From Frankiales bacterium (lineage in GTDB: Bacteria > Actinomycetota > Actinomycetes > Mycobacteriales > SCTD01), in the NCBI GenBank assembly GCA_043740815.1, contig JAYUBO010000198.1, positions 1 through 43,345 on the forward strand: 43,345 bases of DNA. Reading direction: 5' to 3'. The notes under the pieces are model-generated. The model made no database searches, was not told the origin of the DNA, and worked only from the letters and a program-made list of their open reading frames with translations. Shown here piece after piece: positions 7,060-38,808 of the stretch (its first letter is position 1; every line of letters begins with the position of its first letter). A program made the translations under genes and the position numbers.

Positions 7060-7164
7060 GGTGGTGTCTCCCTCTCGGCGACGGGCTGGGGGCACGTTAC
7101 GGGCGACGCCGCCCGGTGTCTAGTCACCTCCTGCGTAGACATGCGTCGCCTCGCCGCGAGGGTG

Positions 7165-8154: not shown

Positions 8155-8188
8155 GGACGTGTCGGATCCAACCGGTCCCGACCTTGCC

Positions 8189-8216
8189 TTGACAGTGATG
8201 TTCGTCATGTTATTCT
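8189..8216 (+). promoter_or_regulatory. Sigma-70-like promoter TTGACA-N16-TATTCT facing the epoxide hydrolase/ABC operon
   Basis: TTGACA at 8189-8194, a 16-nt spacer, then TATTCT at 8211-8216. It sits in the visibly AT-richer divergent region between the SorC gene and the + strand operon. Confidence 0.35.
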
Positions 8217-8408
8217 TGCATCGATTTGCAGGCAGAGCATAGAAATGTTCCACCGATCGAGCAATTCTTGCCTTTTGATTCACGGTGCGAGGGCGGCCGC
8301 TCGTCGCTGGGCGGCAGGTCACCCCCTGGCAACCGGCGACGACCCGCACACCCGACAGCAGGCAACGCCGCGACGGTCCGGTCGCCGGCCACGACCCAGG
8401 AGGTCAGC

Positions 8409-21627: not shown

Positions 21628-22827
21628 CTAGGCCTGCCTCGTCTGGAGTGAGCGCAGCCGATCGACGAGGAATGCTCTTTCCACGGTGTTGTGGGTGAGC
21701 AGCAGCGCCTCCTGGTACGCCGTCGCTGCCTCGCCCTTGCGGCCAAGGCGGCGCAGGAAGTCAGCCCTGGCGGCGGAGAAGTAGCCGTAGGCCGCGAGGG
21801 CCGGCTCGCTACCGAGGGCGTCGAGGGCATCGAGCCCGGCCTCGGGGCCGTCGGCCATACCGGTGGCGACAGCCCGGTTGAGGGCGACGACCGGGCTGGG
21901 CCACTGCCGTTCGAGCAGCCCGTAGAGCGCGACGATCTCGCGCCAGTCGGTCTCCTGCCAGGTGCGGGCGTCGGCGTGCACCGCGGCGATGGCAGCCTGC
22001 AGGGCGTAGCGGCCGGGGGGACCCTGCTGCAGGGCGGACCGGACCTTGGCGACGGCGGCGTCGATGGCGGCGCGGTCCCAACGGGTGCGGTCTTGCTCCT
22101 CGAGCAGCAGCAGCCGACCGAGCTCGTCGGTGCGGGTGGCCCGCCGGGCATCGGTCAGCTCGATGAGTGCCAGCAGTCCCGTCACCTCCGGGGTCGGCAG
22201 CAGGCTGTGCAGCATCCGGGCGAGGTCCAGGGACCGCTCGACCAGGTCGTGACGGGTCAGGCGGTCCCCAACCGGGGCGGTGTGGCCGGTCGTGAACAGC
22301 AGGTGGAGCACGGCCAGCACGCCATCGACGCGCTCCGGCAGCTCCTGTGCGATGGGCACCCGGTAGGGGATCCGGGCCTGGCCGATCTTCTTCTTCGCCC
22401 GGGTGATCCGGGCGGCCATCGTCGGCTCGCTGACCAGGAAGGCGTGCGCCACCTCTGCCGTTGACAGCCCGCACAGCAGTCGCAGCGCCAGCGCCACCTG
22501 GGTCTCGGTCGCGAGAGCAGGGTGGCAGCACGTGAACACCAGCCGGAGCCGGTCGTCGGGGAACGGTCCTTGCGGGTCCTGCTCCTCGACGATCAGCAGC
22601 GGCAGCGCCTTGCCGAGCACCTGCTCCCGGCGCAGCAGGTCCACCGCCCGGTTGCGCGCGACGGTCGTCAGCCAGCCTCCGGGGCTGTTCGGCACCCCGC
22701 CCTGCCAGGTCAGCAGGGCCTTCGCGAACGCGTCCTGCACGCACTCCTGCGCCAGGTCGAGGTCACGTGTGACGCGCACCGTCGCGGCGAGCACGGCAGC
22801 CCACTCGCAACGATGCGCGTCAGCCAA
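21628..22827 (-). CDS. ECF-type RNA polymerase sigma factor with long C-terminal TPR-like extension (COG4941 type)
   Basis: 399 aa. Region 2 is LAQECVQDAFAKAL..W...PGGWLTTVARNRAVDLLRRE. Region 4 is RLRLVFTCCHPALATETQVALALRLLCGLSTAEVAHAFLVSEPTMAARITRAKKKI. It lies downstream of a YCII gene, which is the usual pairing. Confidence 0.85.
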   Translation of the reverse strand: MADAHRCEWAAVLAATVRVTRDLDLAQECVQDAFAKALLTWQGGVPNSPGGWLTTVARNRAVDLLRREQVLGKALPLLIVEEQDPQGPFPDDRLRLVFTCCHPALATETQVALALRLLCGLSTAEVAHAFLVSEPTMAARITRAKKKIGQARIPYRVPIAQELPERVDGVLAVLHLLFTTGHTAPVGDRLTRHDLVERSLDLARMLHSLLPTPEVTGLLALIELTDARRATRTDELGRLLLLEEQDRTRWDRAAIDAAVAKVRSALQQGPPGRYALQAAIAAVHADARTWQETDWREIVALYGLLERQWPSPVVALNRAVATGMADGPEAGLDALDALGSEPALAAYGYFSAARADFLRRLGRKGEAATAYQEALLLTHNTVERAFLVDRLRSLQTRQA

Positions 22828-25052: not shown

Positions 25053-27797
25053 TCAGAGGTCGGGGTCGCCGGTGGAGGTGTCAGCGCGGGCACCCGCCTG
25101 GGCTCGTTGGGAGCGTTCCTGGATTTCCGACCAGACGGCGGTGTGGCTGTCGACGCACAGGACGACGAGGTCGCCGGTGCCGGCCAGGTCAAGGGCGCGG
25201 CGGGTGGCCTGCATCTCGTCGTGGACCTGTTCGACGACACCGCAGCGCGCCCCGTCTGCCATGGCGGCACGGGCACCGTCCTCGATGAGCGCCGCGACCT
25301 GACCACTGGGCCGCCCCCGCAGGCGTTTGTCCTCGCGTACGACGAGCAGGTCGAAGTGCCGCGCGGCGACCTCGCCGAGCTCGCGCATGTCCTCATCACG
25401 CCGGTCGCCAGCGGTGGCGATGACGCCGATCCGGCGGTGCCGCAGCAAGTCGTCGGTGGGCTGGTCGCTGAGCTTGTCGACGAAGTCGCCGAGCAGTCGC
25501 ATACCGGCCGCGTTGTGGCAGTAGTCGACGACGACGGTGATCCCGTCGATCTCGGTCACGTTGAGGCGGCCGGGCGCGAGGTAGTAGGACGTGGTGAACG
25601 TCCGCAGCCCCTGCCGGATGTCGTGCAGTGGAGCGCCCGCAGCGAAGGCGGCGCCAGCTGCGGCCATCGCGTTCTGGACGTTCATGATCGCCTTGCCGCC
25701 GAAAGTGGCGGGCAGCAGGTGCGTCCAGGCGAGCTGCATGGACCGTCGGCCGTGCCGGATCAAGATCATGTCGCCCAGGTCGCCGCGCTCGAGTACGACG
25801 GCCCGGCCGCCACGGCGGCAGTGGTCGTCGACCCTCTTCCAGACCGGCGTACCGGGCTGCGACATCGTGAACCACACGACCTGGCCGCTGCAGGAGCGGG
25901 ACATCTTGGCGACCAGCGGGTCGTCGGCGTTGAGGACCGCGAAGCCGTCGCGGGGTACCGCCTCGACGATGACCTGCTTCACCGTGGCCAGCTGCTCGAT
26001 GGTGTCGATGCCACCGAGCCCGAGGTGGTCGGGGGAGACGTTCAGGACGACCGCGACGTCGTTGCGCTCGTAGCCCAGGCCTTCGCGCAGTAGGCCTCCG
26101 CGGGCGACCTCGAAGACGGCGAAGTCGACGCGCGGGTTCTGCAGCACCATCCGGGCGCTCTTGGGGCCGGACGCGTCAGCCCGGATGACCAGGCGCTCGT
26201 CGATGACGATGCCGTCGGTCGAGGTCATCCCGACCTTGCGGCCCAGGCCTTTGAAGATGTGCGACACCATTCGCGACGTCGTCGTCTTGCCGTTGGTGCC
26301 GGTGATCGCGACGATGGGGATGCGGGAGGGGGTACCGGGCGGGAACAGCAGGTCGATGACGGGCTTCGCGACGTACTGCGGCTCGCCGACCGTCGGGTTG
26401 GTGTGCATCCGGAAGCCCGGGGCGGCGTTGACCTCGACGATGCCGCCGCCAACCTCACGGACCGGGTCGGAGATGTCGACGGCCATGAAGTCGATGCCGG
26501 CGACGTCGAGGCCGACGACGCGGGCCGCCTCCTCGGCGATCTCGACGTTGTCCGGATGGGCTTCGAGGGTCCGGTCGATCGAGATGCCGCCGGTCGACAT
26601 GTTGGCAGTCAGCGTGAGCTTTACCATGACGCCCCGGTCAGGGACGGCGGACCGGGTCAGGCCCTGCGCGCCAAGCAGCTCGTCGGCCGCCTCGTCGAGG
26701 GCGATCCTGGTGAGGACCTTCTCGTGGCCGACGCCCCGGCGGGGGTCGGCGTTCGTGACCTCGACCAGCTCGGCGACGGTCTGGACGCCGTCGCCGATGA
26801 CGTGGGCCGGCACCCGCTCGGCGACGGCGACCATCCGGCCGCCGACAACCAGGAACCGGTAGTCGCTGCCCACCAGGTAGGTCTCGACGATGACCCAGCC
26901 GCGGCGGGACTCGCTTTTGGCGACGTCGAAGGCTTTCGCGACCGCTGCGTCGTCACGCAGGTCGAGCCCGACCCCGCGCCCGTGGTTGCCGTCGGCCGGC
27001 TTCAGCACGACCGGGAAGCCGATCCGATGGGCGACCTCCAACGCGTCGTCGAGTGTCCGGACGGCCTTGGACTGCGGCACCGGCAGCCCAGCCGAGGACA
27101 GCAGCTGCAGGGTCATCTCCTTGTCGCTCGCGATGTCGACCGCAAGCGAGCCCGTCTGGGAGGTCATGGTGGCCCGGATCCGTTTTGCGTGGACCCCCTG
27201 CCCGAGCTGCACGAGCGACGCGGTGTTGAGTCGCATCCACGGGATGTCTCGGGACACGGCCTCATCGACCAGCGACTGGGTCGACGGCCCGAAGGCGGCC
27301 TTCTGGGCGAGCAGCAGCAGCCGCTCGATCTCGCCGCCGGGGTCGAGGTTGGGCTCGGCCTGCACGAGGTGATTCACCAGCCGGACGGCGAGCTTGCCGG
27401 CCGCGACCCCGACGGTCTCATCGGAATAGGCGTAGATCACGTCGTACACCCCGGGTCGGCCGGCGGTGCCCCGGGTCTTGCCACGCGACACGTCGGCGCC
27501 GGTGAGCTTTTGCAGCTCCAGGGCGACGTGCTCCGCGACGTGCCCGAGCCAGGTGCCCTCGTCAAGGCGCTCGGCAAAGCCACCGGCCTTGCGTCGTGAG
27601 CAGGAGTGCTCGCCGACGCCGGGAAGCAGTGCGAGCAGCGCCTCGGTGAAGCCCGGGATCAGGTCGGTCGGGAACTGCTCGAGACCCCCCAGGTCGACCT
27701 GCAGGTGTACCGCCGGGTCATACGACCAGTAGTTCGGTCCGCGGTAGACGCGGCTCGACACGATCGTCAGGTCGGGCGACGGCAGGGAGGTGGTCAT
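25053..27797 (-). CDS. cphA: Cyanophycin synthetase (N, ATP-grasp G and Mur-ligase M domains)
   Basis: 914 aa. N-domain: RVYRGPNYWSY, GEHSCS, GTWLGHVAEHVALELQ. ATP-grasp region: FPVVLKPADGNHGRGV, VNAAPGFRMH. M-domain: ITGTNGKTTT, DHLGLGGI. The start overlaps the cphB stop (ATGA). Confidence 0.93.
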   Translation of the reverse strand: MTTSLPSPDLTIVSSRVYRGPNYWSYDPAVHLQVDLGGLEQFPTDLIPGFTEALLALLPGVGEHSCSRRKAGGFAERLDEGTWLGHVAEHVALELQKLTGADVSRGKTRGTAGRPGVYDVIYAYSDETVGVAAGKLAVRLVNHLVQAEPNLDPGGEIERLLLLAQKAAFGPSTQSLVDEAVSRDIPWMRLNTASLVQLGQGVHAKRIRATMTSQTGSLAVDIASDKEMTLQLLSSAGLPVPQSKAVRTLDDALEVAHRIGFPVVLKPADGNHGRGVGLDLRDDAAVAKAFDVAKSESRRGWVIVETYLVGSDYRFLVVGGRMVAVAERVPAHVIGDGVQTVAELVEVTNADPRRGVGHEKVLTRIALDEAADELLGAQGLTRSAVPDRGVMVKLTLTANMSTGGISIDRTLEAHPDNVEIAEEAARVVGLDVAGIDFMAVDISDPVREVGGGIVEVNAAPGFRMHTNPTVGEPQYVAKPVIDLLFPPGTPSRIPIVAITGTNGKTTTSRMVSHIFKGLGRKVGMTSTDGIVIDERLVIRADASGPKSARMVLQNPRVDFAVFEVARGGLLREGLGYERNDVAVVLNVSPDHLGLGGIDTIEQLATVKQVIVEAVPRDGFAVLNADDPLVAKMSRSCSGQVVWFTMSQPGTPVWKRVDDHCRRGGRAVVLERGDLGDMILIRHGRRSMQLAWTHLLPATFGGKAIMNVQNAMAAAGAAFAAGAPLHDIRQGLRTFTTSYYLAPGRLNVTEIDGITVVVDYCHNAAGMRLLGDFVDKLSDQPTDDLLRHRRIGVIATAGDRRDEDMRELGEVAARHFDLLVVREDKRLRGRPSGQVAALIEDGARAAMADGARCGVVEQVHDEMQATRRALDLAGTGDLVVLCVDSHTAVWSEIQERSQRAQAGARADTSTGDPDL

Positions 27798-28714
27798 GAC
27801 GATGCGCCCTCCTGGCTGAGGCGACGGGGGACGTTGCCCACCGCTCCCTCGACGGCGATCAGCCGCTCGACCCTGCTGCGCACATGAGGGGGCTCGCGCA
27901 GGTCGTCGGGACGCCCACCGACACCGGGGAGCAGCAGGCGGGCGGCGAGGTCGAAACGGGCTCCAGCCGGCAGCGAGTGCACCACCATGCCCGACACGAG
28001 GATGGGTGCGCTCCGGGCAGCGGTGTCGATGTTGGACGTGGCGGTCCGGCCGTCGAACAGCGTGACGGCGCCGCGACCGATGACCTCGAGCAGATGCCCC
28101 TGCGTGATGATGGCTGCTGTGTCCTCATCGACGCCCATGCCGAGCAGGTGCGGGGCGTGCGACACCAGGGTCAGCAGCCGGCCATAACGGTTGCGCTGGT
28201 CGAAGTGCTGGTCGATCACCAGCCCGGGCAGCAGGCCCAGCCCGGCCGACATCTGGGCGCCACGCATCTTGGGCGTCGTACCGGGGGGGCCGAAGGCGAC
28301 CATGTGCTCGCTCTGGACCGAGGCGCCGGCAGAGGTGCCACCGACGACCACCCCCCGGATGTGGGCCATCTTGATGGCCGTTCCGAACGTCGTGCCGGCC
28401 AGGACCGCTGACAACGTCGACTGGTTGCCACCGGTCATGAAGATGCCGGTCACGTCGTGCAGCTGGGCGACCTGGTGCGGATCCTCAGCGTCAGCGCGGG
28501 TGCGCGGCCGGGGCGCCACGACGTCGGTGACACCGAGCTTGCCGAAGGCCTCGCGGTAGGCATCGATGATCTCCGCACCGAGCGAAGAGGCGGTCGCGAT
28601 GACCGCGACCTTCGCGCCAGGACCGCCGGCGAGCTTGGCGAAGCGGGCGAGAACCTGACGCGCGCCGGTCTTGTCCTCGGCGCCGCCGATGACCATCAGG
28701 GGGCCGGTCGTCAT
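27794..28714 (-). CDS. cphB: Cyanophycinase (peptidase S51)
   Basis: 306 aa. Contains MVIGGAEDK, FMTGGNQ, GGTSAGAS (nucleophile Ser) and VIDQHF..RNRYGRL. It is translationally coupled to cphA. Confidence 0.9.
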   Translation of the reverse strand: MTTGPLMVIGGAEDKTGARQVLARFAKLAGGPGAKVAVIATASSLGAEIIDAYREAFGKLGVTDVVAPRPRTRADAEDPHQVAQLHDVTGIFMTGGNQSTLSAVLAGTTFGTAIKMAHIRGVVVGGTSAGASVQSEHMVAFGPPGTTPKMRGAQMSAGLGLLPGLVIDQHFDQRNRYGRLLTLVSHAPHLLGMGVDEDTAAIITQGHLLEVIGRGAVTLFDGRTATSNIDTAARSAPILVSGMVVHSLPAGARFDLAARLLLPGVGGRPDDLREPPHVRSRVERLIAVEGAVGNVPRRLSQEGASS

Positions 28715-29281: not shown

Positions 29282-29459
29282 GTGTGAACCCCCAGGAAAT
29301 AGCCCTTGCCTTCAACCTAGACCGGCCGTGGAGGCACGGAAAGCCCCTGTCAGGTGTCCGACATCGCGGCTGTCAGCCGCCGGGCCCGCGCATGTGCAGG
29401 TCGGTGAAGGCGCCCCTGCTCATGCGTCTCAGGTGCTCGTCGCTGCGGGTGACGCCCAC

Positions 29460-29465
29460 TAGCCT
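29460..29465 (+). promoter_or_regulatory. Candidate -10 hexamer TAGCCT for a leaderless transcript of the ligase cassette
   Basis: TAGCCT ends 6 nt before GTG 29472, with no SD. Confidence 0.3.
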
Positions 29466-29471
29466 GTCGGC

Positions 29472-30425
29472 GTGCATCAGGTAGCGGTCATCTCCGGGGG
29501 GCTCTCCCACGAGCGGGACGTGTCGGTGCGCTCCGGGCGCCGACTTGCCGAGCAGCTCGTCAAGGCCGGGCTCGACGTCGACCACTGGGACGTCGACGAG
29601 CGCTTCGTCGGTCTGGTCTCAGACCGTGACGCCGACGTGGCCTTCGTCGCGCTGCACGGCGGGTCCGGCGAGAACGGCACGGTCCAGGCCCTGCTCGAGC
29701 TCGCCGGGCTGCCCTACGTCGGGTCGACGGCCGGCGCCTGCCGGGGCGCCTACGACAAGGCCATCGCCAAGACCCGCATGGTCGAGGCCGGCCTGTCTAC
29801 GCCGGCGTGGGTGACTCTGCCCAGCACGATTTTTCGCGAGGTGGGCCCGGAGAACCTCTACCACCTGGTCGACTCGGTCATCGGGCTGCCGTTGGTCGTC
29901 AAGCCCGTCACCGGTGGCTCCTCCCTCGGGGTGACCGTCGTCCGTGAGGAGAAGGACCTGCCGGGGGCGCTCGTCCAGGCCTACGCCTACGCGCCCGACG
30001 TCCTGCTCGAGGCCTACGTCCTCGGCCACGAGGTGACCGTCCCCGTCCTCGACCTCGGCGAGGGCCCCAAGGCGCTGGCGCCGATGCTCATCGAGCTGCC
30101 CGAAGGCACCGTCTACGACTACCAGGCCCGGTACGACGCCTCGTCCAACGTCCGCTACACCTCGCTGAGCGACGACGACCCGCGGGTCGACGTCGCCGCG
30201 GTGCGCGCCGTCGCCGAGCGGGTCCACAGCCTGCTGGGGCTGCGCGACCTGTCGCGCGTTGATGTGATCGTCGGGACGGACGGCGTGCCGCAGGTCCTTG
30301 AGGCGGCGGTCACGCCAGGGCTCACCGAGACGTCCACGTTTCCGCTGGCGGTCACCAGCGCAGGCCTTGAGCTCAGCGAGGTCTACGCGACCCTCGTCGG
30401 CAACGCGAAGAAGCGCGGCGGCTGA
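29472..30425 (+). CDS. D-alanine--D-alanine ligase family ATP-grasp protein (divergent, DdlB-length)
   Basis: 317 aa. Contains VAVISGGLSHERDVSVRSG, HGGSGENGTVQALLELAGLPYVGS, VVKPVTGGSSLGV and SRVDVIV...LEAAVTPGLTETS. It has Arg where DdlB has Lys215 (YQARY) and Ala where DdlB has Asn272 (EAA instead of ExN). Confidence 0.8.
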   Translation: MHQVAVISGGLSHERDVSVRSGRRLAEQLVKAGLDVDHWDVDERFVGLVSDRDADVAFVALHGGSGENGTVQALLELAGLPYVGSTAGACRGAYDKAIAKTRMVEAGLSTPAWVTLPSTIFREVGPENLYHLVDSVIGLPLVVKPVTGGSSLGVTVVREEKDLPGALVQAYAYAPDVLLEAYVLGHEVTVPVLDLGEGPKALAPMLIELPEGTVYDYQARYDASSNVRYTSLSDDDPRVDVAAVRAVAERVHSLLGLRDLSRVDVIVGTDGVPQVLEAAVTPGLTETSTFPLAVTSAGLELSEVYATLVGNAKKRGG

Positions 30426-30426
30426 G

Positions 30427-31134
30427 GTGGCGCTGACCGCCCTGCTCGACGGTGCGGTGCTGGCCGAAAAGACCGGGGACAACCCCCAGGTGCTCGCCCT
30501 GCACGGCTGGGGACGGACCCGCGCCGACTGGCTGCCGGTCCTCGCCGGGGTGGCCGCTCTCGCCGTCGACCTGCCTGGCTTCGGTGCCTCCCCGGAGCCG
30601 GCCACCGCCTGGGGCGCACGGGACTACGCCGAGCTTCTTGCCCCGGTCCTCGCGGGTGGCGGCTGGACCGTGGCGGGCCACTCCTTCGGTGGACGCGTCG
30701 CCGTACACCTGGCCGCGGGGTGGCCCTCGCTGATCTCCAAGGTGGTCCTGACAGGCGTCCCGCTGCTACGGACGACGTCCACGGCTAAGGCGCCGCTGGC
30801 GTTCCGGCTGGCCAGGAAGGCCCACCGGCTCGGCCTGCTCTCGGACGACGCGATGGAGCAGCAGCGGCGGGCGCGCGGCTCCACGGACTACCGCAACGCC
30901 ACCGGCGTGATGCGGGACACCCTGGTACGCCTGATCAACGAGGACTACCGCGAGCAGCTGGTGCGCATCGAGGCGCCGGTGGAGCTGGTGTGGGGTGCGT
31001 CGGACACCGCCGCGCCCTTGGCGATGGCCCGGGAGGCCTGTGGGCTGTTGGCGCACGGGACGCTGAGCGTCTCCGAGACGAGCGGCCATCTGCTCGACGA
31101 GGGGCTGTACGAGCTGCTGGCGCGGGCCCTGTGA
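30427..31134 (+). CDS. Alpha/beta hydrolase
   Basis: GTG 30427 lies 1 nt after the ddl-like stop. Contains LALHGWG, the nucleophile elbow GHSFGG, GASDTA (Asp) and SGHLL (His). The stop overlaps the next start (GTGA). Confidence 0.75.
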   Translation: MALTALLDGAVLAEKTGDNPQVLALHGWGRTRADWLPVLAGVAALAVDLPGFGASPEPATAWGARDYAELLAPVLAGGGWTVAGHSFGGRVAVHLAAGWPSLISKVVLTGVPLLRTTSTAKAPLAFRLARKAHRLGLLSDDAMEQQRRARGSTDYRNATGVMRDTLVRLINEDYREQLVRIEAPVELVWGASDTAAPLAMAREACGLLAHGTLSVSETSGHLLDEGLYELLARAL

Positions 31135-32633
31135 GCGTGCTGGTGCAGCTGCTGTGTGTCGCGGCAGCCGTGGCAGGGACCCCCCGCTGGCTGCGCGTCG
31201 CCCAGCGCGAGCACTACCTCCCCGGATCGGTGCTCTGGACCGAGCAGCTCTGGCTGAGCCGATCCCTGCCGTCAGTGTTGCTCTACCTGCCGGTCATCGG
31301 GTTGTTTGCCCTCGGGGTCGTCGTGAGCCCGTGGTTCTACGTCGGTGCCGCGGTCCTCGCGCAGACCACCCCGCTCGGGCTGCCCTACCGGGGGCGCACG
31401 TCGCGGCTGGCCTGGACGCCCCGGCTCCGCCGGCTCTGCGTCGTACTGGGGCTGCTCGTCGTTCTCGTCGCGGTCTGGTCACCTGCGCTGGCCAGCTGTA
31501 CGTCGCTGTTCCTCACAGCCCTGGTCGACCTGGCGTTGCTGAGCCTGACGCCGGTCGAGAAGAAGCTGTCCAGCGCCTTCCTCGAGCAGGCCCGGGCCAA
31601 GGTCGCAAAGGTCCGGCCGACGGTCGTCGCCATCACCGGGTCCTTCGGCAAGACGACCACCAAGAACTACCTCGCGCACCTGCTCGCGCAGACCCACACG
31701 GTGCTCGCGAGCCCCGCCTCCTTCAACAACGCGATGGGGCTGTCGCGGGCCGTCAACGAAGGCCTGGTCCCGGGGACGGAGGTGTTCGTCGCCGAGATGG
31801 GTACCTACGGCGAGGGTGAGATCCGCAGGCTGTGCGAGGTGTTCCCGCCCGACATCGCCGTGATGACCGCCATCGGCGAGGTGCACCTGCAGCGGATGAA
31901 GACGCGCGCGGGTGTGCTGCGTGCGAAGACCGAGATCACCGAAAAGGCCCGCACGGTCGTGCTCAACGTCGACGACGACCTGCTCGCCGGTCTCGCTGTT
32001 TCCCTTGCCGCACAAGGCAAACAGGTCCTCCGCTGCTCGGTGCTCACGGTCGATGCGGACGTCTGCATCGTGGAGGGAGTGCTGCATGTACGCGGGGACG
32101 AGGTCGGTCCCGTCACCCTGCCCGACGCCGTCCACCCGGCGAATGCGGCCTGCGCGGTCGGGGCTGCCGTGGCGCTCGGCGACGACCCGGCCGCCCTGCT
32201 CGGACGCCTCGCGACGATCCCCAACGTGGCCCACCGCCTGGAGCCGGTCGCCCAGCCTGGCGGCAGCTGGATCCTCGACGACACCTACAACTCCAACCCT
32301 GCCGGAGCCGCAGAAGCGGTACGCCGGGCGGTGTTGCTCGCCTCCCGCTCAGGTGGTCGTGTGCACGTCGTCACCCCCGGAATGGTCGAGCTCGGCGCCT
32401 ATCAGAAGGTCCGAAACACCGAGCTCGGCAAGGCCGTGGCTGATGCAGGGGCGGCCACCCTCGTGGTGGTCGGTCGGACCAACCTCCGTGCCCTGCGCAA
32501 AGGTGGATCGGGTGGTGGGACGCAGGTCCTGAAGGCCGCCACCCGCGAGGCCGCCGTCGCACTCGTCGGGACGAGGTCGGCCACCGGGGACGTCGTACTG
32601 TTCGAGAACGACCTCCCAGACCACTACCCCTGA
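31131..32633 (+). CDS. MurF-family Mur ligase with polytopic membrane N-terminal domain
   Basis: GTG 31131 overlaps the upstream TGA. The first ~140 aa are hydrophobic (LVQLLCVAAAVAG, VLLYLPVIGLFALGVVVSPWFYVGAAVLA, LCVVLGLLVVLVAVW, LFLTALVDLALLSL). Then come MurF-type motifs: AITGSFGKTTTKNYL, FNNAMGL, VAEMGTYGEGEI, AIGEVHLQRM, DDTYNSNPAGA and VTPGMVELG. Confidence 0.8.
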   Translation: MSVLVQLLCVAAAVAGTPRWLRVAQREHYLPGSVLWTEQLWLSRSLPSVLLYLPVIGLFALGVVVSPWFYVGAAVLAQTTPLGLPYRGRTSRLAWTPRLRRLCVVLGLLVVLVAVWSPALASCTSLFLTALVDLALLSLTPVEKKLSSAFLEQARAKVAKVRPTVVAITGSFGKTTTKNYLAHLLAQTHTVLASPASFNNAMGLSRAVNEGLVPGTEVFVAEMGTYGEGEIRRLCEVFPPDIAVMTAIGEVHLQRMKTRAGVLRAKTEITEKARTVVLNVDDDLLAGLAVSLAAQGKQVLRCSVLTVDADVCIVEGVLHVRGDEVGPVTLPDAVHPANAACAVGAAVALGDDPAALLGRLATIPNVAHRLEPVAQPGGSWILDDTYNSNPAGAAEAVRRAVLLASRSGGRVHVVTPGMVELGAYQKVRNTELGKAVADAGAATLVVVGRTNLRALRKGGSGGGTQVLKAATREAAVALVGTRSATGDVVLFENDLPDHYP

Positions 32634-32646
32634 TCGGAGCACCTTC

Positions 32647-33759
32647 GTGGGCCAGCTGGCCATCGTGTTCGGCGGACCGTCGCCGGAGCACGACATCAGC
32701 ATCCTGACCGGGCTGCTCAGTGAGCGGGTGCTGCGCGACGCGGGGCACGACGTCGCGCCCCTGTACTGGACGCGGACGGGGGAGTGGGTGCTGTGCCCCC
32801 CGCGCTCGGAGGCAAAGGACTTCCTGGAGGGTGCCCCGCGGGGTGCCACCAAGCTCGAGGTGACCCTCGGGGGCGGCTTTCAGACCCCCAAGAAAGGCCT
32901 CGGTGGCGGTAAGCCGCTCGCCCTGGACGTGGCCCTGAACTGCTGCCATGGCGGCGCCGGCGAGAACGGCGGCCTCAACGCGGTCTTCGACCAGCTCGGC
33001 CTCCCGATGACCGGCGGCCCCTCCACGCTGGCCGCCCTGGGCATGGACAAGCTCGCCTTCGGGGCGGTCCTGCAGGCCAACGCGATCCCGACCCTGCCGC
33101 GCGTCGCGCTCGGGGCCGAACAGGTCCCCTTCGACGGGCCGTACATCGTCAAGCCCCGCTTCGGTGGCTCGAGCATCGGGATCGAGGTGGTCGAGGACCT
33201 CGACACCGCCCGGGCGCTCGCCAGGACGTCGGTGCACCTGCGGCAGGGTGTCGTGCTCGAGCCGTTCTCCAAGGGCGCGATCGACCTGAACCTGGCCTAC
33301 TCGACGCACCCGTCCCTGCGCTTCTCGCTGCTCGAGAAGCCGCTCGCCCCGGCGGCCGCTGAAGGGATCTACTCCTACACCCAGAAGTACCTGCAGACCG
33401 ACGGGCTACAGGCCGCGCCCCGCGAGCTGCCCGCCCAGGTCCCCGCGGAGGTGACGGCCGAGGCAGAGCGCCTGGCGGGTGCCGTGCTCGCCGTGACGGG
33501 TCTGCGAGGTCTGGGGCGCCTGGACTTCCTGCTCGTCGACGACGTGCTCTACGTCAACGAGGTGAACACGATCCCCGGGTCCATGTCGCTCTACCTGTGG
33601 CCCTCGACGATCCCGGCCGCCGAGCTGCTGATGGGCTCCGTCGAGGAGGCCCGCGCCTCGTTCGGGTGGGCTGAGCCGGCGCCGTTCGAGCCCGGGGCTG
33701 CCCTGCGGGCGGCCGGAGGGATGGCCGGCAAGCTCGGTCAGATCGGCCAGAACCGGTAA
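32647..33759 (+). CDS. ddl: D-alanine--D-alanine ligase (DdlA-length, canonical active-site motifs)
   Basis: 370 aa with GTG 32647 after GGAG. Contains LAIVFGGPSPEHDISILTG, HGGAGENGGLNAVFDQLGLPMTG, VKPRFGGSSIGI, YTQKYL (Lys-Tyr retained) and GRLDFLL...NEVNTIPGSMS (ExN retained). Confidence 0.85.
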   Translation: MGQLAIVFGGPSPEHDISILTGLLSERVLRDAGHDVAPLYWTRTGEWVLCPPRSEAKDFLEGAPRGATKLEVTLGGGFQTPKKGLGGGKPLALDVALNCCHGGAGENGGLNAVFDQLGLPMTGGPSTLAALGMDKLAFGAVLQANAIPTLPRVALGAEQVPFDGPYIVKPRFGGSSIGIEVVEDLDTARALARTSVHLRQGVVLEPFSKGAIDLNLAYSTHPSLRFSLLEKPLAPAAAEGIYSYTQKYLQTDGLQAAPRELPAQVPAEVTAEAERLAGAVLAVTGLRGLGRLDFLLVDDVLYVNEVNTIPGSMSLYLWPSTIPAAELLMGSVEEARASFGWAEPAPFEPGAALRAAGGMAGKLGQIGQNR

Positions 33760-33827: not shown

Positions 33828-34580
33828 GTGACCGGTGGCTCGGGGGCGGGCAAGGCCACGGGCAAGCCCGCAGGGGTGTCGACGGGCCCGCGAGGGCGGC
33901 CAGCGGCGGGCGGCGGACGTTGGGTCAGCGTCGGACCGGAACGACTGACCAGGTGGGTCGAGGGCTTTGGTAACCGGCACGGCGCCTTCACGACAGCCGT
34001 GGGGGACGCGGCTGCTCCCGGGACGGTGGTGCTCGTCGCGGCGGACGGTTCCCAGGCGCATATCGAGGTGCCGTTTCCGCCGCTGGCTACCCCGACGGCT
34101 TCTCTGCTCGAGGCACTGCTGGCCCATGTCCTGGCGCCACGCACGGTGGGGGTGCTGCTGGTTCGGCTCGGGGGCTATGCCGCGGGCGTGTTCGACGGCG
34201 GCGTCCTGGTCAGCTCGAAGGTCGGCTCGCGGCAGGTCCACGGGAGGTCGGCTGCGGGCGGCTGGTCACAGCAGCGGTTCGCCAGGAGGCGGGAGGGTCA
34301 GGCCAGCGTCGCCCTGCAGTCGGCGGCCGACAACGCCGTCCGGATCCTCCTCGGCCGGCCCCTGGACGCGGTGGTGGTCGGTGGGGAGCGGACAGCCGTC
34401 GAAGCGGTACTCGACGACCGGCGACTCGCGGACGTGAAGGCGCTCGTCACAGGCCGGCTGCTCGACGTGCCCGACCCACGCTTGACGATTCTGCAGAAGG
34501 CGCCGTACCGGGACGTCTGGATCCGCGTGGTCGAGGCCGGGGGCCCTCCGCCGCTGCCCATGAAAGACTCACAGCCATGA
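33828..34580 (+). CDS. acVLRF1-like (Vms1/ANKZF1-type release-factor fold) putative peptidyl-tRNA hydrolase
   Basis: 250 aa. The core GYAAGVFDGGVLVSSKVGSRQVHGRSAAGGWSQQRFARRRE carries the GG-x-x-Q-type loop of the VLRF1 clade as I recall it. The exact start is uncertain because the N-terminus is Gly/Pro-rich. Confidence 0.65.
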   Translation: MTGGSGAGKATGKPAGVSTGPRGRPAAGGGRWVSVGPERLTRWVEGFGNRHGAFTTAVGDAAAPGTVVLVAADGSQAHIEVPFPPLATPTASLLEALLAHVLAPRTVGVLLVRLGGYAAGVFDGGVLVSSKVGSRQVHGRSAAGGWSQQRFARRREGQASVALQSAADNAVRILLGRPLDAVVVGGERTAVEAVLDDRRLADVKALVTGRLLDVPDPRLTILQKAPYRDVWIRVVEAGGPPPLPMKDSQP

Positions 34581-35620
34581 GTGAAATGCGGCTGTTGGCG
34601 GCTCCGAAGCCAGGCCGGCTCGGGGCTGTGGTCTACGCGCTGCGTACCACCAACCCGCCGCCGGACCGACCGATCGCCTCCCTCGACGTGGTCACCCGCT
34701 GGGTCGTGGTCACCAGGGCCGCCGTCCTGCCGATGACGCTGTTCGCCGGGCTCGTTGCCGGGCTGCTGGCCGTCCGCGCGGAGGGCTTCTCGGCCTGGAT
34801 GTTCGCCCTGGCGCTGGTCGGCATCCTGCTCGCCCACACCTCCAACAACCTCATGAACGACCTGGCCGACACCGACGTCGGCCTCGACACTGCGAGCTAC
34901 CCGCGGGCGCTGTACGCGCCGCACCCGATCCTGTCCGGCCTGGTCACGCGCAGCCAGTTGATGGCCGCGATTGGCGCGTGTGTCCTGGCCGACTTCGTCA
35001 TCATGGTGGTCCTTGCCGCGCAACGCGGCTGGCCGGTCGTGGCCTTTGCCGTCGGCGGACTGCTGCTGTCCTACGCCTACACCGCGCCGCCGCTACGGCT
35101 GAAGAAGCACGGTCTCGGCGAGCCGGATGTCTTCGTGACGTGGGGACCGCTGATGGTCGCCGGCACCTACTTCAGCTCCGTCGGTCACCTGCCGTGGCAG
35201 GTGTGGGTCGCGTCCGTGCCCTACGGACTGCTCTGTACGACGGTCCTCATGGGCAAGCACATCGACAAGATCCCCTACGACGAGCCGACCGGGACCCGCA
35301 CCATCCCGGTGATCCTCGGCGAGGAACGGGCCAGGGTCGTCACGATCGGGTTGGTGCTGGGGTTCTACGCCGCCGTCGTGGCGGCTGTCGCCGTACAGGC
35401 GCTTCCCTGGCCGTCCCTGCTGGTCCTGGTCTACCTGCCCGTGGCGTGGAAGGTCACCGGCGCGTTGCGGGCGCCGAAGCCGGCCGAGCCGCCGCCCGGC
35501 TTCCCGGTGTGGCCGCTGTGGTTCGCGGCGATCTGCTTCGTGCACACCGCCCGGGTGGGTGGGCTGCTCGTGCTCGGCCTAGTCGTCTCGGCCGTCTTCG
35601 AGATCGGACTGCCGCTGTGA
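34577..35620 (+). CDS. UbiA-family prenyltransferase (MenA-like)
   Basis: 347 aa and polytopic. The first Asp-rich motif is NNLMNDLADTD. ATG 34577 overlaps the upstream TGA (ATGA). Confidence 0.8.
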   Translation: MSEMRLLAAPKPGRLGAVVYALRTTNPPPDRPIASLDVVTRWVVVTRAAVLPMTLFAGLVAGLLAVRAEGFSAWMFALALVGILLAHTSNNLMNDLADTDVGLDTASYPRALYAPHPILSGLVTRSQLMAAIGACVLADFVIMVVLAAQRGWPVVAFAVGGLLLSYAYTAPPLRLKKHGLGEPDVFVTWGPLMVAGTYFSSVGHLPWQVWVASVPYGLLCTTVLMGKHIDKIPYDEPTGTRTIPVILGEERARVVTIGLVLGFYAAVVAAVAVQALPWPSLLVLVYLPVAWKVTGALRAPKPAEPPPGFPVWPLWFAAICFVHTARVGGLLVLGLVVSAVFEIGLPL

Positions 35621-37686: not shown

Positions 37687-38808
37687 CTAGCCGGTCGGCG
37701 AGGCGCTCAGGCCGGTGCAGGAGCGCAACTGCTGCCAGGCCGCGACCGCTCGGTCGGGTGAGCTGAGCGCGCGGGGCGTGCCCCCGCTGATGACGGCAGG
37801 CGTCCACCGTGACTGCTCGACGGTGCGGCCGCGCAGGGTGAGGGTGAGCACGCCGGAGACGGCCTGCGGACCTGGGCGGGCGTAGAAGGCGAAGTTGCCC
37901 AACCCGTAGTCCACGTAGGTCTGTCCCAGGTAGCCCGCGCCCTGCAGGACGTGCGCATGTGAGCCCACGACGACGTCGGCGCCGGCCTCGGACAGCTGGT
38001 GGGCGAGGCCTTGCTGGGTGCCGCTCGGGCAGCTCGTACGCTCCTCGCCCCAGTGCAGGTAGACGACGACCACGTCCGCCTCGGCACGTGCGGCCCTGAC
38101 CGCCTGGAGCGTCCGCGACACGTCTTTCGCGGACGCGAGCCCGGCCTTGTCCGGACCAGCCGTCCACGCCGTCCGGACCGCGTCGTCCAGGACCTGCGTG
38201 GCTCCGAGGAACGCAACCCGCGTCCCCCGCACCGTGAACACCTTCGCCCGGTACGCCGCGTGATCGTCCCTCCCGACCCCGACGACGGGGAAACCTGCCG
38301 TGCGGGCCGCGTCGAGGGAGTCCTGCAGGCCGACCGGCCCGTAGTCGATGCCGTGGTTGTTTGCCCCCGTCACCACGTCGATGCCGGCGCCCCGGAGGGC
38401 GGTGAACGCGGACGGGGGCGCGCGGAACACGAACTGCTTGCTCACCGGCGTACCACGGGTGGTGATCGCGGTCTCGAGGTTGACCATGGCGAGGTCGGAG
38501 GCGGAAAGGACCGAGCGCAAGGGACCGATCGCGGTAGCAGGGTCGTTCGCCAGGCGGCCGGCAAGGACTCCTTGGAAGTGGACGTCGCCAGCAAACGACA
38601 CGGTCAGCTTGCCTGTGCTGCTGGTGCTCGGCCGGCGCGAGGGTGTGGGCGAGGGTGTGTGCGCCGGGGTTCGTGGAGCGGCCGCCTGGGTCTGCGCGGA
38701 CGAGGGCAGGCTGCGCGTGGTTGGTGAGCCGGCGGAGCAGGCAGCGAGCGTCACCGGAAGGGCGAGCGCGGTCGCGGTCAGCAGGCGACGAGACCGCGGC
38801 GAGAGCAC
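37687..38808 (-). CDS. CapA family (PGA_cap metallophosphatase-like) lipoprotein
   Basis: 373 aa with a GTG start. Signal peptide with lipobox TLAACSAG. Contains FAGDVHF, NLETAIT, GANNHGIDYG and HWGEE. Confidence 0.85.
   Translation of the reverse strand: MLSPRSRRLLTATALALPVTLAACSAGSPTTRSLPSSAQTQAAAPRTPAHTPSPTPSRRPSTSSTGKLTVSFAGDVHFQGVLAGRLANDPATAIGPLRSVLSASDLAMVNLETAITTRGTPVSKQFVFRAPPSAFTALRGAGIDVVTGANNHGIDYGPVGLQDSLDAARTAGFPVVGVGRDDHAAYRAKVFTVRGTRVAFLGATQVLDDAVRTAWTAGPDKAGLASAKDVSRTLQAVRAARAEADVVVVYLHWGEERTSCPSGTQQGLAHQLSEAGADVVVGSHAHVLQGAGYLGQTYVDYGLGNFAFYARPGPQAVSGVLTLTLRGRTVEQSRWTPAVISGGTPRALSSPDRAVAAWQQLRSCTGLSASPTG

Follow-up and report, generated by a model that had tools for sequence, protein, structure and literature searches.

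A conserved actinobacterial gene triad encoding an alpha/beta hydrolase, a MurF-like ligase with a membrane domain and a divergent Ddl: a possible membrane-associated peptide-ligation module

Four plus-strand genes of a Frankiales bacterium, found in a window of 43,345 nucleotides (the whole stretch of DNA that was analysed), raise a question: why would two Ddl-like ligases, a serine hydrolase and a MurF-like enzyme with a membrane domain be encoded together? The original prediction held that the genes are co-translated, and the junctions read directly from the DNA (29472-33759: a 1-nt gap, a GTGA overlap and a 13-nt gap) support translational coupling. The Ddl1 frame (29472-30425) ends in TGA, and a lone g at 30426 precedes the GTG start of the hydrolase (ABH) at 30427. 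The TGA of the hydrolase (31132-31134) shares GTGA with the GTG start of the Mur ligase (TM-Mur) at 31131. The stop of TM-Mur (32631-32633) is followed by a 13-nt spacer containing GGAG and by the GTG start of Ddl2 at 32647, whose frame closes on TAA (33757-33759). For ABH and TM-Mur, the short forms starting at 30427 and 31131 were preferred over the longer ORFs of the ORF lister because the N-termini of homologs agree with them.

GC3 is 0.87–0.93 in three of the four frames; the TM-Mur frame failed the GC3 filter that the other three passed, and its support comes from its homologs. All four proteins are 71–88% identical to those of the relative L001 and, judging from their sequences, appear to be under purifying selection. 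A consensus scan found no sigma-70-like promoter in the divergent intergenic region upstream; as the scan has no model of actinobacterial promoters, we presume a promoter role from the position of this region. The genes had been placed outside a dcw-like context, and indeed murE, mraY and murD are all absent from the window, as is any further murF or ddl.

Features of the cassette and its surroundings (window coordinates)
Feature	Coordinates	Strand	Basis
Cyanophycin synthetase	25053-27797	-	just upstream of cassette
S51 peptidase	27794-28714	-	just upstream of cassette
Divergent intergenic region, 190 bp, presumed cassette promoter region	29282..29471	.	between 161-aa minus-strand ORF and Ddl1
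Ddl1, short DdlB-type D-Ala-D-Ala ligase homolog, 317 aa	29472..30425	+	Pfam N and C domains
ABH, alpha/beta-fold serine hydrolase, 235 aa	30427..31134	+	Pfam Abhydrolase_6/1
TM-Mur, MurF-like Mur ligase, domain 1 swapped for five-helix membrane domain, 500 aa	31131..32633	+	Pfam, HMM, AlphaFold, Foldseek, phmmer
Membrane domain of TM-Mur, five hydrophobic helices, aa 1-140	31131..31550	+	hydropathy, charge distribution, helices in model
Nearly invariant cytoplasmic motif RWLRVAQREHY, aa 19-29	31185..31217	+	alignments
Conserved basic cytoplasmic loop RGRTSRLAWTPRLRR, aa 87-101	31389..31433	+	alignments
Mur-ligase P-loop GSFGKTTTK, aa 170-178	31638..31664	+	invariant alignment columns; aligned to MurF
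MurF-like FNNAMG motif, after P-loop	31722-31739	+	invariant alignment columns; aligned to MurF
MurF-type C-domain motif DDTYNSNP, aa 383-390	32277..32300	+	invariant in alignments
C-terminal tail ENDLPDHYP, kept to last residue, modelled as disordered	32604..32630	+	invariant in 38 sequences
Ddl2, divergent long-form Ddl paralog, 370 aa	32647..33759	+	Pfam N and C domains

TM-Mur had been described as a MurF-like enzyme with a polytopic membrane domain, and both profile-HMM searches and structure prediction bear this out. Pfam detects only Mur_ligase_M and Mur_ligase_C in this protein (Dala_Dala_lig_N and C are found in both Ddl proteins, and Abhydrolase_6/1 in the hydrolase), and TM-Mur scores 178 bits against the murF model TIGR01143, whose cutoff is 288.6. 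The best Foldseek matches of its AlphaFold model (pLDDT 90, pTM 0.85) are MurF structures (E of 3e-21 to 3e-16 over about 370 columns). Its P-loop, FNNAMG, AEMG...GEI, AK.EI, DDTYNSNP and PGMVELG motifs are MurF-like; the motif DDxYNANP is specific to MurF, and DDTYNSNP was one of the two patterns used to retrieve relatives. The UDP-binding domain 1 of MurF is wholly missing from TM-Mur according to Pfam and to a phmmer alignment with E. coli MurF, which begins at MurF residue 71. The C-terminal tail, of which residues 496-500 have a pLDDT below 50, may serve as a docking motif for a partner protein.

The N-terminal helices of TM-Mur are predicted to place the N-terminus outside and the catalytic domain inside. 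No Pfam family matches the membrane domain even at E ≤ 10, and among 1.84 billion representative proteins it has 201 matches, all of them N-terminal in roughly 500-aa Mur ligases or fragments. Both cytoplasmic loops are net positive and are conserved to a degree comparable to that of the catalytic domains (0.74–0.76). RWLRVAQREHY does not vary in an alignment of 13 sequences and is at least 90% conserved in one of 38, with a mean loop conservation of 0.77 vs. 0.43–0.51 for the TM helices. The second loop has six Arg and zero acidic residues, and its mean conservation (0.83) is the highest among the segments of TM-Mur. Since the loops outscore the helices, a substrate-binding module fits these data better than a simple anchor.

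Which residues of a Ddl enzyme does Ddl2 retain? Across 23–30 orthologs, we tabulated Glu15, Ser150, Lys215/Tyr216 (K247/Y248), Arg255, Asp257, Glu270/Asn272 (E305/N307), Gly276 and Leu282, all of which are kept in Ddl2; Lys215 and Tyr216 of the omega loop constitute the dipeptide-ligase signature. The sole change among the residues checked is Tyr316 at the Ser281 position, and 22 of 23 orthologs share it. Ddl2 scores 162 bits against TIGR01205 (cutoff 245.65; orthologs, 138–163 bits), and its top PDB match, M. tuberculosis Ddl, reaches just 96 bits. Members of its clade score 52–108 bits to the E. coli and M. tuberculosis Ddl enzymes vs. 243–385 bits to one another, and NCBI often labels them “hypothetical protein”. 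Frankiales-like Ddl2 is 44–50% identical to Acidimicrobiia Ddl2 vs. 29% to M. tuberculosis Ddl, so it comes from a separate clade of paralogs and not from a ddlA passed down vertically.

Of two Ddl paralogs, one had been considered divergent; there are two, but both are non-canonical, and differently so. By sequence, Ddl1 is nearer to the genuine Ddl enzymes: its top PDB match is E. coli DdlB (155 bits), it is as far from that protein as the E. coli and M. tuberculosis enzymes are from each other, and it scores 235 bits against NCBIfam PRK01372 (cutoff 243). Yet it has Arg220 for Lys215 and Ala279 for the Mg ligand Asn272 (E. coli DdlB numbering; motif LEAAVTPG), and both changes are invariant inside its clade. 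It is the slowest-evolving of the four cassette proteins, being 85–99% identical in relatives whose TM-Mur is 70–91% identical. Ddl1 is best explained either as a lineage-specific fourth member or as a neighbouring housekeeping Ddl.

As predicted, ABH is a serine hydrolase with an intact catalytic triad: it has an HGW oxyanion motif, the nucleophile Ser86 in GHSFGG, Asp193 and His221. This catalytic triad, like a GSxDY motif, shows little or no variation across 30–47 orthologs. A profile search of the PDB returned generic esterases (Rv0045c, arylesterases and carboxylesterases) and no peptidase family, and the protein is predicted to be cytoplasmic and esterase-like. The hydrolase gene had been viewed as inserted between the Ddl genes, which describes its position in this cassette; evolutionarily, however, it is the tightest partner of TM-Mur, lying directly upstream of it in 40 of 40 loci, with frequent 4-nt overlaps.

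The neighbourhood survey showed that the conserved unit is the gene triad ABH/TM-Mur/Ddl2. The four-gene cassette originally proposed as the unit is therefore upheld for these three co-localised genes but not for Ddl1, which adjoins the triad in only about 8 of about 41 loci, in some lineages and in three different arrangements. The gene order recurs in about 40 independent loci of Actinomycetes and Acidimicrobiia at 40–55% amino-acid identity, which puts it far beyond chance. In 30 loci, Ddl2 begins no more than 120 nt after TM-Mur; three more have a partial or frameshifted Ddl2, and another four hold ABH and TM-Mur without an adjacent Ddl2. The carriers are Frankiales-like MAGs, Nocardioides, Microbacteriaceae, Propionibacteriaceae, Kineosporiales, Egibacteraceae and many Acidimicrobiia. 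Its setting in Nocardioides, Gulosibacter and Acidimicrobiia is the gpsA...thiL-yloV-recG-rsmD-coaD region; gpsA...thiL-recG is also the site of ddlA in M. tuberculosis. The architecture had not been recognised as a described system, and this view stands: no curated HMM reaches its cutoff, the membrane domain has no Pfam model, the NCBI names are generic, and we found no matching system in the literature. Many actinobacteria carry this tightly packed set of a ligase, a dipeptide synthetase and an esterase.

What might such a set do? Our tentative reading, short of an even chance, is that the triad is a conserved actinobacterial membrane-associated peptide-ligation module, in which Ddl2 would make a dipeptide, TM-Mur would join it to a carboxylate of a membrane acceptor and ABH would prepare or recycle the substrate. 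The making or editing of a dipeptide-terminated, membrane-bound molecule, as proposed originally, is probably the best description of its task. We infer the chemical steps from homology, and the substrates, topology, step order and ABH role are conjectured along with them. Ddl2 would be an ATP-grasp ligase whose D-Ala1 site and catalytic machinery are intact and whose second-substrate site is remodelled by Ser281->Tyr; its product would be a D-alanyl-D-Xaa dipeptide, possibly D-Ala-D-Ala itself. TM-Mur would be a MurF-type enzyme in which five TM helices have taken the place of the UDP-binding domain and two invariant arginine-rich cytoplasmic loops would lie close to the active site. Working at the cytoplasmic face, it would phosphorylate a carboxylate of an anionic acceptor embedded in the membrane and then attach the dipeptide. 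The most economical candidate acceptor is a MurNAc-peptide linked to polyprenyl diphosphate (lipid I or II with a tripeptide stem), in which case the membrane domain would bind prenyl diphosphate as MurF domain 1 binds UDP; yet a lipid-linked tripeptide is not known as a physiological intermediate for which an enzyme of this kind would be required. ABH may unmask the acceptor, or trim or turn over the product.

Some observations weigh against this mechanism. The nearest relatives of ABH are esterases, and a pure amide pathway offers an esterase no obvious task; the loci that lack an adjacent Ddl2 are also at odds with it. In several lineages, Ddl2 occupies the positional slot of ddlA and could simply supply ordinary D-Ala-D-Ala. 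Furthermore, triad-bearing lineages differ in peptidoglycan chemotype, which argues against a chemotype-specific modification and lends no positive support to a peptidoglycan role.

Could these be housekeeping genes after all, with Ddl1, Ddl2 or both being normal Ddl enzymes, TM-Mur a tethered MurF isozyme acting on soluble UDP-MurNAc-tripeptide, whose helices only bring it near MraY, and ABH a passenger? TM-Mur is an orthodox MurF in its catalytic and C-terminal domains, the triad occupies the ddlA site in several lineages, the window has no other murF or ddl, and Ddl1, with its slow evolution and its closeness to E. coli DdlB, carries the NCBI name D-alanine--D-alanine ligase in the Frankiales-like clade. 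Nevertheless, we consider this account unlikely. The domain that would bind UDP is the one that TM-Mur lacks, loops more conserved than helices would not be expected of a mere tether, every curated MurF and Ddl model scores below its cutoff, and Ddl2 belongs to a paralog clade. In Spongisporangium, NCBI names neither of the cassette ATP-grasp proteins Ddl, which implies a further genuine Ddl elsewhere, and the coupling of ABH to TM-Mur in every locus means that ABH is no passenger. It is somewhat doubtful that the product lies outside of peptidoglycan, such that TM-Mur peptidylates another carboxylate-bearing molecule of the membrane (for example, a lipid head group, the uronic acid of a glycolipid or a membrane protein at its C-terminus) or makes a short anchored or exported peptide polymer, and ABH is a dedicated turnover hydrolase (cf. 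MprF with an alpha/beta hydrolase, CphA with cyanophycinase, PgsB with PgdS). The restriction of the membrane domain to the TM-Mur family, the likeness of ABH to esterases and lipases more than peptidases, and the varied chemotypes of the carriers would agree with such a product. Cyanophycin synthetase likewise joins an ATP-grasp to a Mur-type ligase, and synthases are commonly encoded together with their hydrolases, as in lpiA-acvB. However, the best sequence and structure matches are specifically MurF, rather than PgsB/CapB, the CphA M-domain, FolC or MurT; the partner is specifically Ddl-like, with its D-Ala site residues kept; and the survey found no exporter, polymerase or lipid-synthesis gene conserved beside the triad.

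We judge it very unlikely that Ddl2 produces a different terminus, such as D-Ala-D-Ser or D-Ala-D-Lac, that TM-Mur installs while ABH destroys the normal one, resulting in intrinsic glycopeptide tolerance. There is a formal likeness to VanA, VanX/VanY and a dedicated MurF, the second-substrate site of Ddl2 is altered, and extra murF genes have been found with van clusters in Actinobacteria (PMC8698665). But neither the window nor the survey showed conserved vanH, vanX, vanY or vanRS neighbours, and Ddl2 falls far under every Van ligase model. The triad also sits in a core-genome syntenic region across the phylum instead of in accessory regions, ABH is cytoplasmic and esterase-like by prediction, and Ddl2 retains the omega-loop signature of dipeptide ligases. 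Scarcely credible, finally, is a role in cyanophycin metabolism, e.g., in providing primers for the adjacent CphA or in modifying the polymer. The cassette does lie beside cyanophycin genes in the window, as had been remarked: CphA, the S51 peptidase and a stand-alone CphA-M-domain-like ligase are all within 6 kb upstream, and the CphA and S51 adjacency is seen again in the relatives L001 and L083. However, these genes are on the opposite strand, and about 38 other loci have no cphA within 8 kb of the triad; an adjacency limited to one Frankiales-like clade provides no evidence for a functional link.

Comparison with known systems places the module reading in context. TM-Mur shares with MurF its central and C-terminal domains, the P-loop, FNNxxG, EMG...GEI, AKxEI, DDxYNxNP and GM.ELG motifs, and the pairing of its gene with one for a Ddl-type dipeptide synthetase; it differs in its five-helix membrane domain, which is specific to the family and has invariant basic loops, its sub-cutoff TIGR01143 score, its location outside of dcw and its invariant C-terminus. 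Ddl1 and Ddl2 resemble DdlA/DdlB and VanA/VanC/VanG in having both Ddl Pfam domains and the majority of the catalytic residues. In Ddl2, the Lys215-Tyr216 pair and the Mg ligands are intact, but Ser281->Tyr and its separate clade distinguish it, as Lys215->Arg and Asn272->Ala distinguish Ddl1; neither is near the cutoff of any Van model. MurT is soluble, has a DUF1727 C-domain and amidates with a glutaminase instead of adding a peptide; the similarity of TM-Mur to it is marginal (E of about 2e-5 to 7e-5), and the cassette has no GatD partner. MurT/GatD does offer a precedent for a Mur-type reaction on a lipid-linked substrate: MurT is a Mur-ligase-family enzyme acting on a lipid-linked peptidoglycan precursor at the cytoplasmic membrane face (PMC3266927, PMC6085368). 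LpiA-AcvB pairs an MprF-type aminoacyl-lipid synthase with a co-encoded alpha/beta hydrolase (PMC13197417). It resembles the triad, by analogy only, in that a membrane-embedded enzyme puts amino acids on a membrane molecule and a hydrolase is co-transcribed; the folds and chemistry are unrelated, with tRNA-dependent transfer in LpiA-AcvB vs. a presumed ATP-dependent acyl-phosphate route in the triad. PgsB/CapB is likewise a membrane-associated Mur-ligase-family amide ligase, but no CapB model is among the matches of TM-Mur, to which MurF is clearly nearest, and there is no PgsC-like partner. A PGA_cap (CapA-like) gene lies 4 kb from the cassette in the window and is not conserved with the triad. 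CphA1 also combines ATP-grasp with Mur-ligase-type catalysis, and one cyanophycin synthetase is encoded next door; CphA1 is, however, a single fused polypeptide without a membrane domain, its adjacency is clade-specific, and TM-Mur scores 16.5 bits on the CphA model.

The four genes of the cassette lie on the plus strand, as the original prediction had it: all four ORFs are present, and their tight junctions can be read directly in the DNA. They encode a D-Ala-D-Ala ligase paralog (Ddl1), an alpha/beta hydrolase (ABH), a MurF-like Mur ligase in which a five-helix membrane domain replaces MurF domain 1 (TM-Mur), and a second D-Ala-D-Ala ligase paralog (Ddl2); the last three are referred to as the triad. 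The Ddl1/ABH junction reads TGA-g-GTG, ABH and TM-Mur share the stop/start overlap GTGA, and a 13-nt spacer containing GGAG separates TM-Mur from the GTG start of Ddl2. Third-position GC was 0.87–0.93 in three of the four frames, and the N-termini of homologs favored the short starts at 30427 (ABH) and 31131 (TM-Mur) over the longer listed ORFs. From sequence comparisons, the core of the cassette appears to be a widely conserved, membrane-embedded MurF subfamily with dedicated partners, whose function we infer.

Features of the cassette and of its surroundings in the window
Feature	Position	Strand	Evidence or remark
ECF-type sigma factor with C-terminal DUF6596 extension	21628-22827	-	upstream of the cyanophycin genes
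Stand-alone Mur-ligase protein, 550 aa	23339-24991	+	TIGR02068 positions 475-846, 344 bits vs. cutoff 850
Full-length cyanophycin synthetase CphA, 914 aa	25053-27797	-	
S51 (cyanophycinase-family) peptidase	27794-28714	-	
Ddl1 gene	29472-30425	+	ORF, Dala_Dala_lig_N+C (Pfam)
ABH gene	30427-31134	+	ORF, Abhydrolase_6/1 (Pfam)
TM-Mur gene	31131-32633	+	ORF, Mur_ligase_M+C only (Pfam)
Ddl2 gene	32647-33759	+	ORF, Dala_Dala_lig_N+C (Pfam)
VLRF1-type release-factor-like gene (acVLRF1 / baeRF family 10), actinobacterial	33828-34580	+	
UbiA/MenA-like prenyltransferase gene	34577-35620	+	start overlapped 4 nt by the VLRF1-type gene
PGA_cap (CapA-like) protein	37687-38808	-	4 kb downstream of the cassette

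Is TM-Mur a MurF? Its best curated NCBIfam model was indeed murF (TIGR01143), at 177.9 bits, below the cutoff of 288.6, and it scored far under every cutoff of the other NCBIfam MurF models. MurF was also the best PDB sequence match, the alignment to the E. coli enzyme beginning at residue 71, where domain 1 ends; the three-domain MurF architecture is thus incomplete, the UDP-binding domain 1 being missing. The motifs GSFGKTTTK, FNNAMG, AEMG..GEI, AKTEI, DDTYNSNP and PGMVELG, which correspond to the P-loop, central and C-terminal motifs of MurF, are invariant. A model computed with AlphaFold from a 38-sequence alignment (pLDDT 90, pTM 0.85) returned MurF structures as its top Foldseek matches. 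The setting is not dcw-like, in agreement with the original prediction: neither the window nor the approximately 40 related loci hold murE, mraY or murD. In its catalytic core, then, TM-Mur resembles MurF; its domain architecture, its scores against the curated models and its genomic setting place it outside the family. The C-terminal tail, ENDLPDHYP (residues 492-500; window 32604-32630), is invariant to the last residue in 38 homologs yet modeled as disordered, which suggests a docking or regulatory motif.

Hydropathy and the model agree that residues 1-140 of TM-Mur form five hydrophobic helices; modeled helices span residues 2-26, 33-44, 46-64, 68-77, 97-114, 118-126 and 128-161, followed by the MurF-like body. 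Two loops, both with a net positive charge, stand out in this region: residues 18-45, containing RWLRVAQREHY (mean conservation 0.77), and residues 81-101, containing RGRTSRLAWTPRLRR (0.83). Elsewhere, the corresponding means were 0.43–0.51 for the transmembrane helices and 0.74–0.76 for the catalytic domains. By the positive-inside rule, both loops are presumably cytoplasmic and would adjoin the ATP-dependent domain. Pfam detected no family in the membrane domain at E<=10, and a Foldseek search of the PDB with the whole model matched the MurF part alone. Among 1.84 billion representative proteins, the membrane domain had 201 matches, found only at the N-termini of Mur ligases of about 500 residues or in fragments thereof. 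Three apparent ABH-TM-Mur fusions (P0258, P0244 and P0148) were considered as Rosetta-stone evidence and rejected as frameshifted, arginine-rich mistranslations.

The conservation pattern of TM-Mur is what a substrate-recognition module, and not a passive anchor, would be predicted to show. Domain 1 of MurF holds UDP. Because the membrane domain replaces exactly this domain, the simplest reading gives the acceptor a handle embedded in the membrane where the MurF acceptor has UDP, and the arginine-rich loops would suit a phosphate or diphosphate group.

ABH has the hallmarks of an alpha/beta hydrolase, namely the G-x-S-x-G elbow, the Asp/His triad and the HG motif, with Abhydrolase_6/1 above Pfam cutoffs. 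The HGW oxyanion motif, the GHSFGG nucleophile motif (Ser86), Asp193 and His221 are conserved in 30–47 orthologs, as is a lid motif, GSxDY...G.MR, in the ortholog alignment. No specific hydrolase subfamily was reached at cutoff, the NCBIfam matches being to generic esterase-type alpha/beta hydrolases only, and the sequence contains neither a signal peptide nor a transmembrane segment. Esterases such as Rv0045c were the best PDB sequence matches; the PDB profile matches comprised esterases, arylesterases, carboxylesterases and C-C hydrolases, with no peptidase family among them. By analogy, ABH could, like BioH, free a masked carboxylate, could degrade the product (as in synthase/hydrolase pairs) or could serve in editing.

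Both ligases belong to the Ddl superfamily and have its two-domain ATP-grasp architecture (Dala_Dala_lig_N and Dala_Dala_lig_C, over Pfam cutoffs), each departing from it in one or two tests of defining residues. With the curated Ddl models (TIGR01205, PRK01372 and PRK01966), Ddl1 fell narrowly below its best cutoff (235.2 vs. 243, DdlB-type model), and its ortholog in the related locus L040 scored 253.6; Ddl2 was far under (161.6 vs. 245.65), as were four of its orthologs (138–163). The best PDB match of Ddl1 was E. coli DdlB (155 bits), and that of Ddl2 was M. tuberculosis Ddl, at just 96 bits. Across the clades, Ddl1-type proteins scored 134–190 bits against E. coli DdlB and are thus equally as close to it as is M. 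tuberculosis Ddl (153 bits), while Ddl2 is much more distant from both reference enzymes (52–108 bits).

Both clades were aligned to E. coli DdlB and to M. tuberculosis Ddl fragments from the PDB alignments, and the residues E15, S150, K215, Y216, R255, D257, E270, N272, S281 and L282 (DdlB numbering) were compared. Neither Ddl1 nor Ddl2 carries the full set. The Ddl2 clade (23–30 sequences) retains E15, S150, K215, Y216, R255, D257, E270, N272, G276 and L282; at the position of Ser281, within PG(S/A)xxxYLW, all sequences but one (His) have Tyr. In DdlB, Ser281 helps to bind the second D-Ala through its carboxylate; the substitution therefore points to a remodeled acceptor sub-site with retained chemistry. 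The Ddl1 clade keeps Ser281, but Lys215 is replaced by Arg (once by His), L282 by Thr, and the Mg-ligand Asn272 by Ala in the motif LE(A/V)A(V/I)TPGxTETS. To our knowledge, nearly all ATP-grasp enzymes have this Asn, the Mg ligand of the E-x-N motif. Two Ddl subclades are thereby defined, each with an unexpected active-site change: one has Tyr for Ser281, and the other has lost Asn272 as an Mg ligand. In Ddl1 of the window, which has R220 and A279 (30123-30137 and 30297-30320), LEAAVTPG replaces LEANTSPG; both changes occurred in 11/11 clade members examined.

Among the same relatives, identity was 85–99% for Ddl1, 75–97% for Ddl2 and 70–91% for TM-Mur, Ddl1 being the slowest-evolving of the four cassette proteins. 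Frankiales-like Ddl2 proteins are 44–57% identical to those of Acidimicrobiia and Kineosporiales and 29% identical to M. tuberculosis Ddl. These comparisons characterize Ddl2 as a paralog clade that travels with TM-Mur and not as a simple vertical ddlA ortholog. In the Frankiales-like clade, NCBI annotates the Ddl1-type protein as D-alanine--D-alanine ligase; in Spongisporangium, the short Ddl1-type protein is an "ATP-grasp domain-containing protein" and Ddl2 a "hypothetical protein," names that suggest that at least this genome has another, true Ddl. ARAGORN placed a 92-nt tRNA-Pro(CGG) within the Ddl2 gene, antisense to it (window 32947-33038, minus strand); it is almost certainly a false positive, because Rfam found no tRNA or other RNA family within the window.

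One genome per species was scanned for related loci, which were read with flanks of at most 10 kb. Of the 80 loci recovered, about 40 had a full-length TM-Mur including the N-terminal motif, and in nearly all of these the order ABH-TM-Mur-Ddl2 was kept, at 40–55% identity to the window proteins (tblastn). ABH ended -16 to +72 nt from the TM-Mur start in 40/40 loci, many with 4-nt overlaps. Ddl2 followed within 120 nt of TM-Mur in 30 loci; in others it was cut by a contig end or frameshifted (three), displaced (two) or absent (four). TM-Mur is always accompanied by the hydrolase and usually by its own Ddl paralog. Carriers of the triad include Frankiales-like/Mycobacteriales MAGs, Nocardioides sp. 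YR527 (NZ_FNFN01), Microbacteriaceae (among them Gulosibacter), Propionibacteriaceae, Egibacteraceae, many Acidimicrobiia (among them the closed MAG chromosomes OZ251535, OZ253443 and OZ243951) and the cultured Spongisporangium articulatum (GCA_044465595.1). The co-localization implied by the original prediction held for the triad and not for the complete foursome: a Ddl1-type gene adjoins in only about eight loci and in three arrangements, namely upstream on the same strand (the window, L001, L030 and L083), downstream on the same strand and overlapping Ddl2 (L081/L082), or downstream and convergent (L005, L028 and L040). The triad is therefore the evolutionary unit, and Ddl1 a recurrent but optional neighbor.

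The triad also has a recurrent genomic slot. In Nocardioides, Gulosibacter and related loci, the order is murA-plsC-like-gpsA-...-(ABH-TM-Mur-Ddl2)-(Ddl1-type)-thiL-yloV-recG, with rsmD/coaD nearby; in Acidimicrobiia it is triad-yloV-recG-rsmD-coaD. The flanking genes were confirmed over NCBIfam cutoffs. On the M. tuberculosis map, with gpsA (Rv2982c), ddlA (Rv2981c), thiL (Rv2977c), recG (Rv2973c) and coaD (Rv2965c), the gpsA...recG-coaD slot is the ancestral ddlA neighborhood. Beyond the triad, the recurring neighbors are housekeeping genes only (gpsA, thiL, yloV, recG, rsmD, coaD, murA, fabI, a UvrD-like helicase and a histidine kinase).

Some individual loci merit comment. Two MAGs labeled Gammaproteobacteria and Acidobacteriota (L009 and L027) have a triad that resembles that of Acidimicrobiia in sequence and in synteny (fabI, histidine kinase, recG, rsmD, coaD), and mis-binning of the contigs is the probable explanation. 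In the Nocardioides-like loci L005 (6087-7193, minus strand), L028 and L040, a PLP enzyme of the cystathionine gamma-lyase/synthase family lies divergently and directly upstream of ABH. It is below equivalog cutoffs, and a weaker NCBIfam match to an archaeal alanine/glutamate racemase model makes it conceivable that it supplies a D-amino acid. In L083, whose TM-Mur is 78% identical, genes for an EamA-family and an MFS transporter (6024-8332) lie immediately ahead of the co-oriented Ddl1 gene, which starts 10 nt after the MFS stop. The window lacks these transporter genes; its Ddl1 gene follows a divergent intergenic region of 190 bp.

The original prediction recognized no described system in this architecture, and our searches bear it out: no curated family, Pfam domain or paper matched, within the texts searched on MurF-like and Ddl-like genes, membrane Mur ligases, paralogs and gene neighborhoods. 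None of the four proteins reached a curated NCBIfam cutoff in profile-HMM comparison, and the PADLOC defense models gave no match. Mur-type chemistry on lipid II has a precedent in MurT/GatD, where a MurT with a DUF1727 C-domain partners the glutaminase GatD, but TM-Mur is not related to it in detail: the MurT model gave 23.6 bits (cutoff 800), and no glutaminase gene adjoins. Nor does the cassette resemble the poly-gamma-glutamate synthetase system, in which a CapB-type ligase (PgsB/CapB) has PgsC and PgsA as partners: no CapB family appeared among the NCBIfam or PDB matches. The resemblance to PgsB/CapB, to the CphA M-domain and to MprF-hydrolase pairs is no more than an analogy.

Our preferred reading, a tentative one, is that Ddl2 would provide a D-Ala-D-Xaa dipeptide, that TM-Mur would activate the carboxylate of a membrane-embedded anionic acceptor and then attach the dipeptide to it, and that ABH would prepare or recycle a substrate. 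The data establish how the genes are built, which domains they encode, which residues are conserved, the synteny and the phyletic spread; the substrates are all ones that we infer. The most economical acceptor would be a prenyl-diphosphate-linked muropeptide with an incomplete stem. A more specific version, which we regard as rather doubtful, would make TM-Mur a MurF of the lipid stage. No Mur ligase before it would have had as its substrate a muropeptide linked to polyprenyl diphosphate (lipid I or II with a shortened stem) and not to UDP, its membrane domain reading the prenyl diphosphate and the dedicated Ddl2 supplying the dipeptide. All stem-peptide Mur ligases known to us are soluble and work on UDP-linked precursors. 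If this version is correct, a large part of the Actinomycetota would have a second, membrane-level route for completing, repairing or editing the stem peptide, with the esterase-like ABH as editing partner.

It is also possible, if rather unlikely, that the triad peptidylates a membrane molecule or polymer outside peptidoglycan and that ABH serves in turnover. That these are ordinary housekeeping enzymes with a MurF merely tethered to the membrane we consider unlikely: the triad occupies the ancestral ddlA neighborhood in several lineages, but the conserved loops are not what a passive anchor would show. Van-like reprogramming is very unlikely. Scores against VanA-type D-Ala-D-Lac and VanC/VanG-type D-Ala-D-Ser ligases were 53–132 bits (cutoffs 495–775), and neither the window nor the related neighborhoods contain van genes (vanH, vanX or vanRS). 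A cyanophycin-related role is scarcely credible: the cassette does sit beside the cyanophycin genes in the window, L001 and L083, as the original prediction noted for the window, but CphA and the S51 peptidase adjoin it only in that one clade, and we rejected the link for this reason.

A MurF with a conserved membrane domain in place of the nucleotide-binding one points to a membrane reaction not yet described, which could be a lipid-stage step in making or repairing peptidoglycan precursors, or the attachment of a peptide to some other molecule of the envelope. The triad belongs to the core genome of many soil and marine Actinomycetota, cultured Nocardioides and Spongisporangium among them. 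D-Cycloserine and MurF inhibitors target the two enzyme classes found in it (Ddl and MurF), so that the triad could be relevant to envelope diversity and to the intrinsic tolerance of cell-wall antibiotics.

Several other genes of the window deserve mention. CphA and the S51 peptidase are translationally coupled as well, because their genes overlap by 4 nt (ATGA). The match of the 550-aa Mur-ligase protein to cyanophycin synthetase is confined to the M-domain half, and the N-terminal 147 aa of the protein have no assignment; its gene lies tail-to-tail with full-length cphA, and L083 has none beside cphA. A link between the PGA_cap protein and the cassette was likewise rejected, as it is not conserved beyond one clade; NCBIfam matched this protein only weakly and to a single model, that of the MslH lasso-peptide epimerase, and it is not co-conserved with the triad elsewhere. 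Coupling of the VLRF1-type and prenyltransferase genes is local, because in L083 they are separated and on opposite strands.
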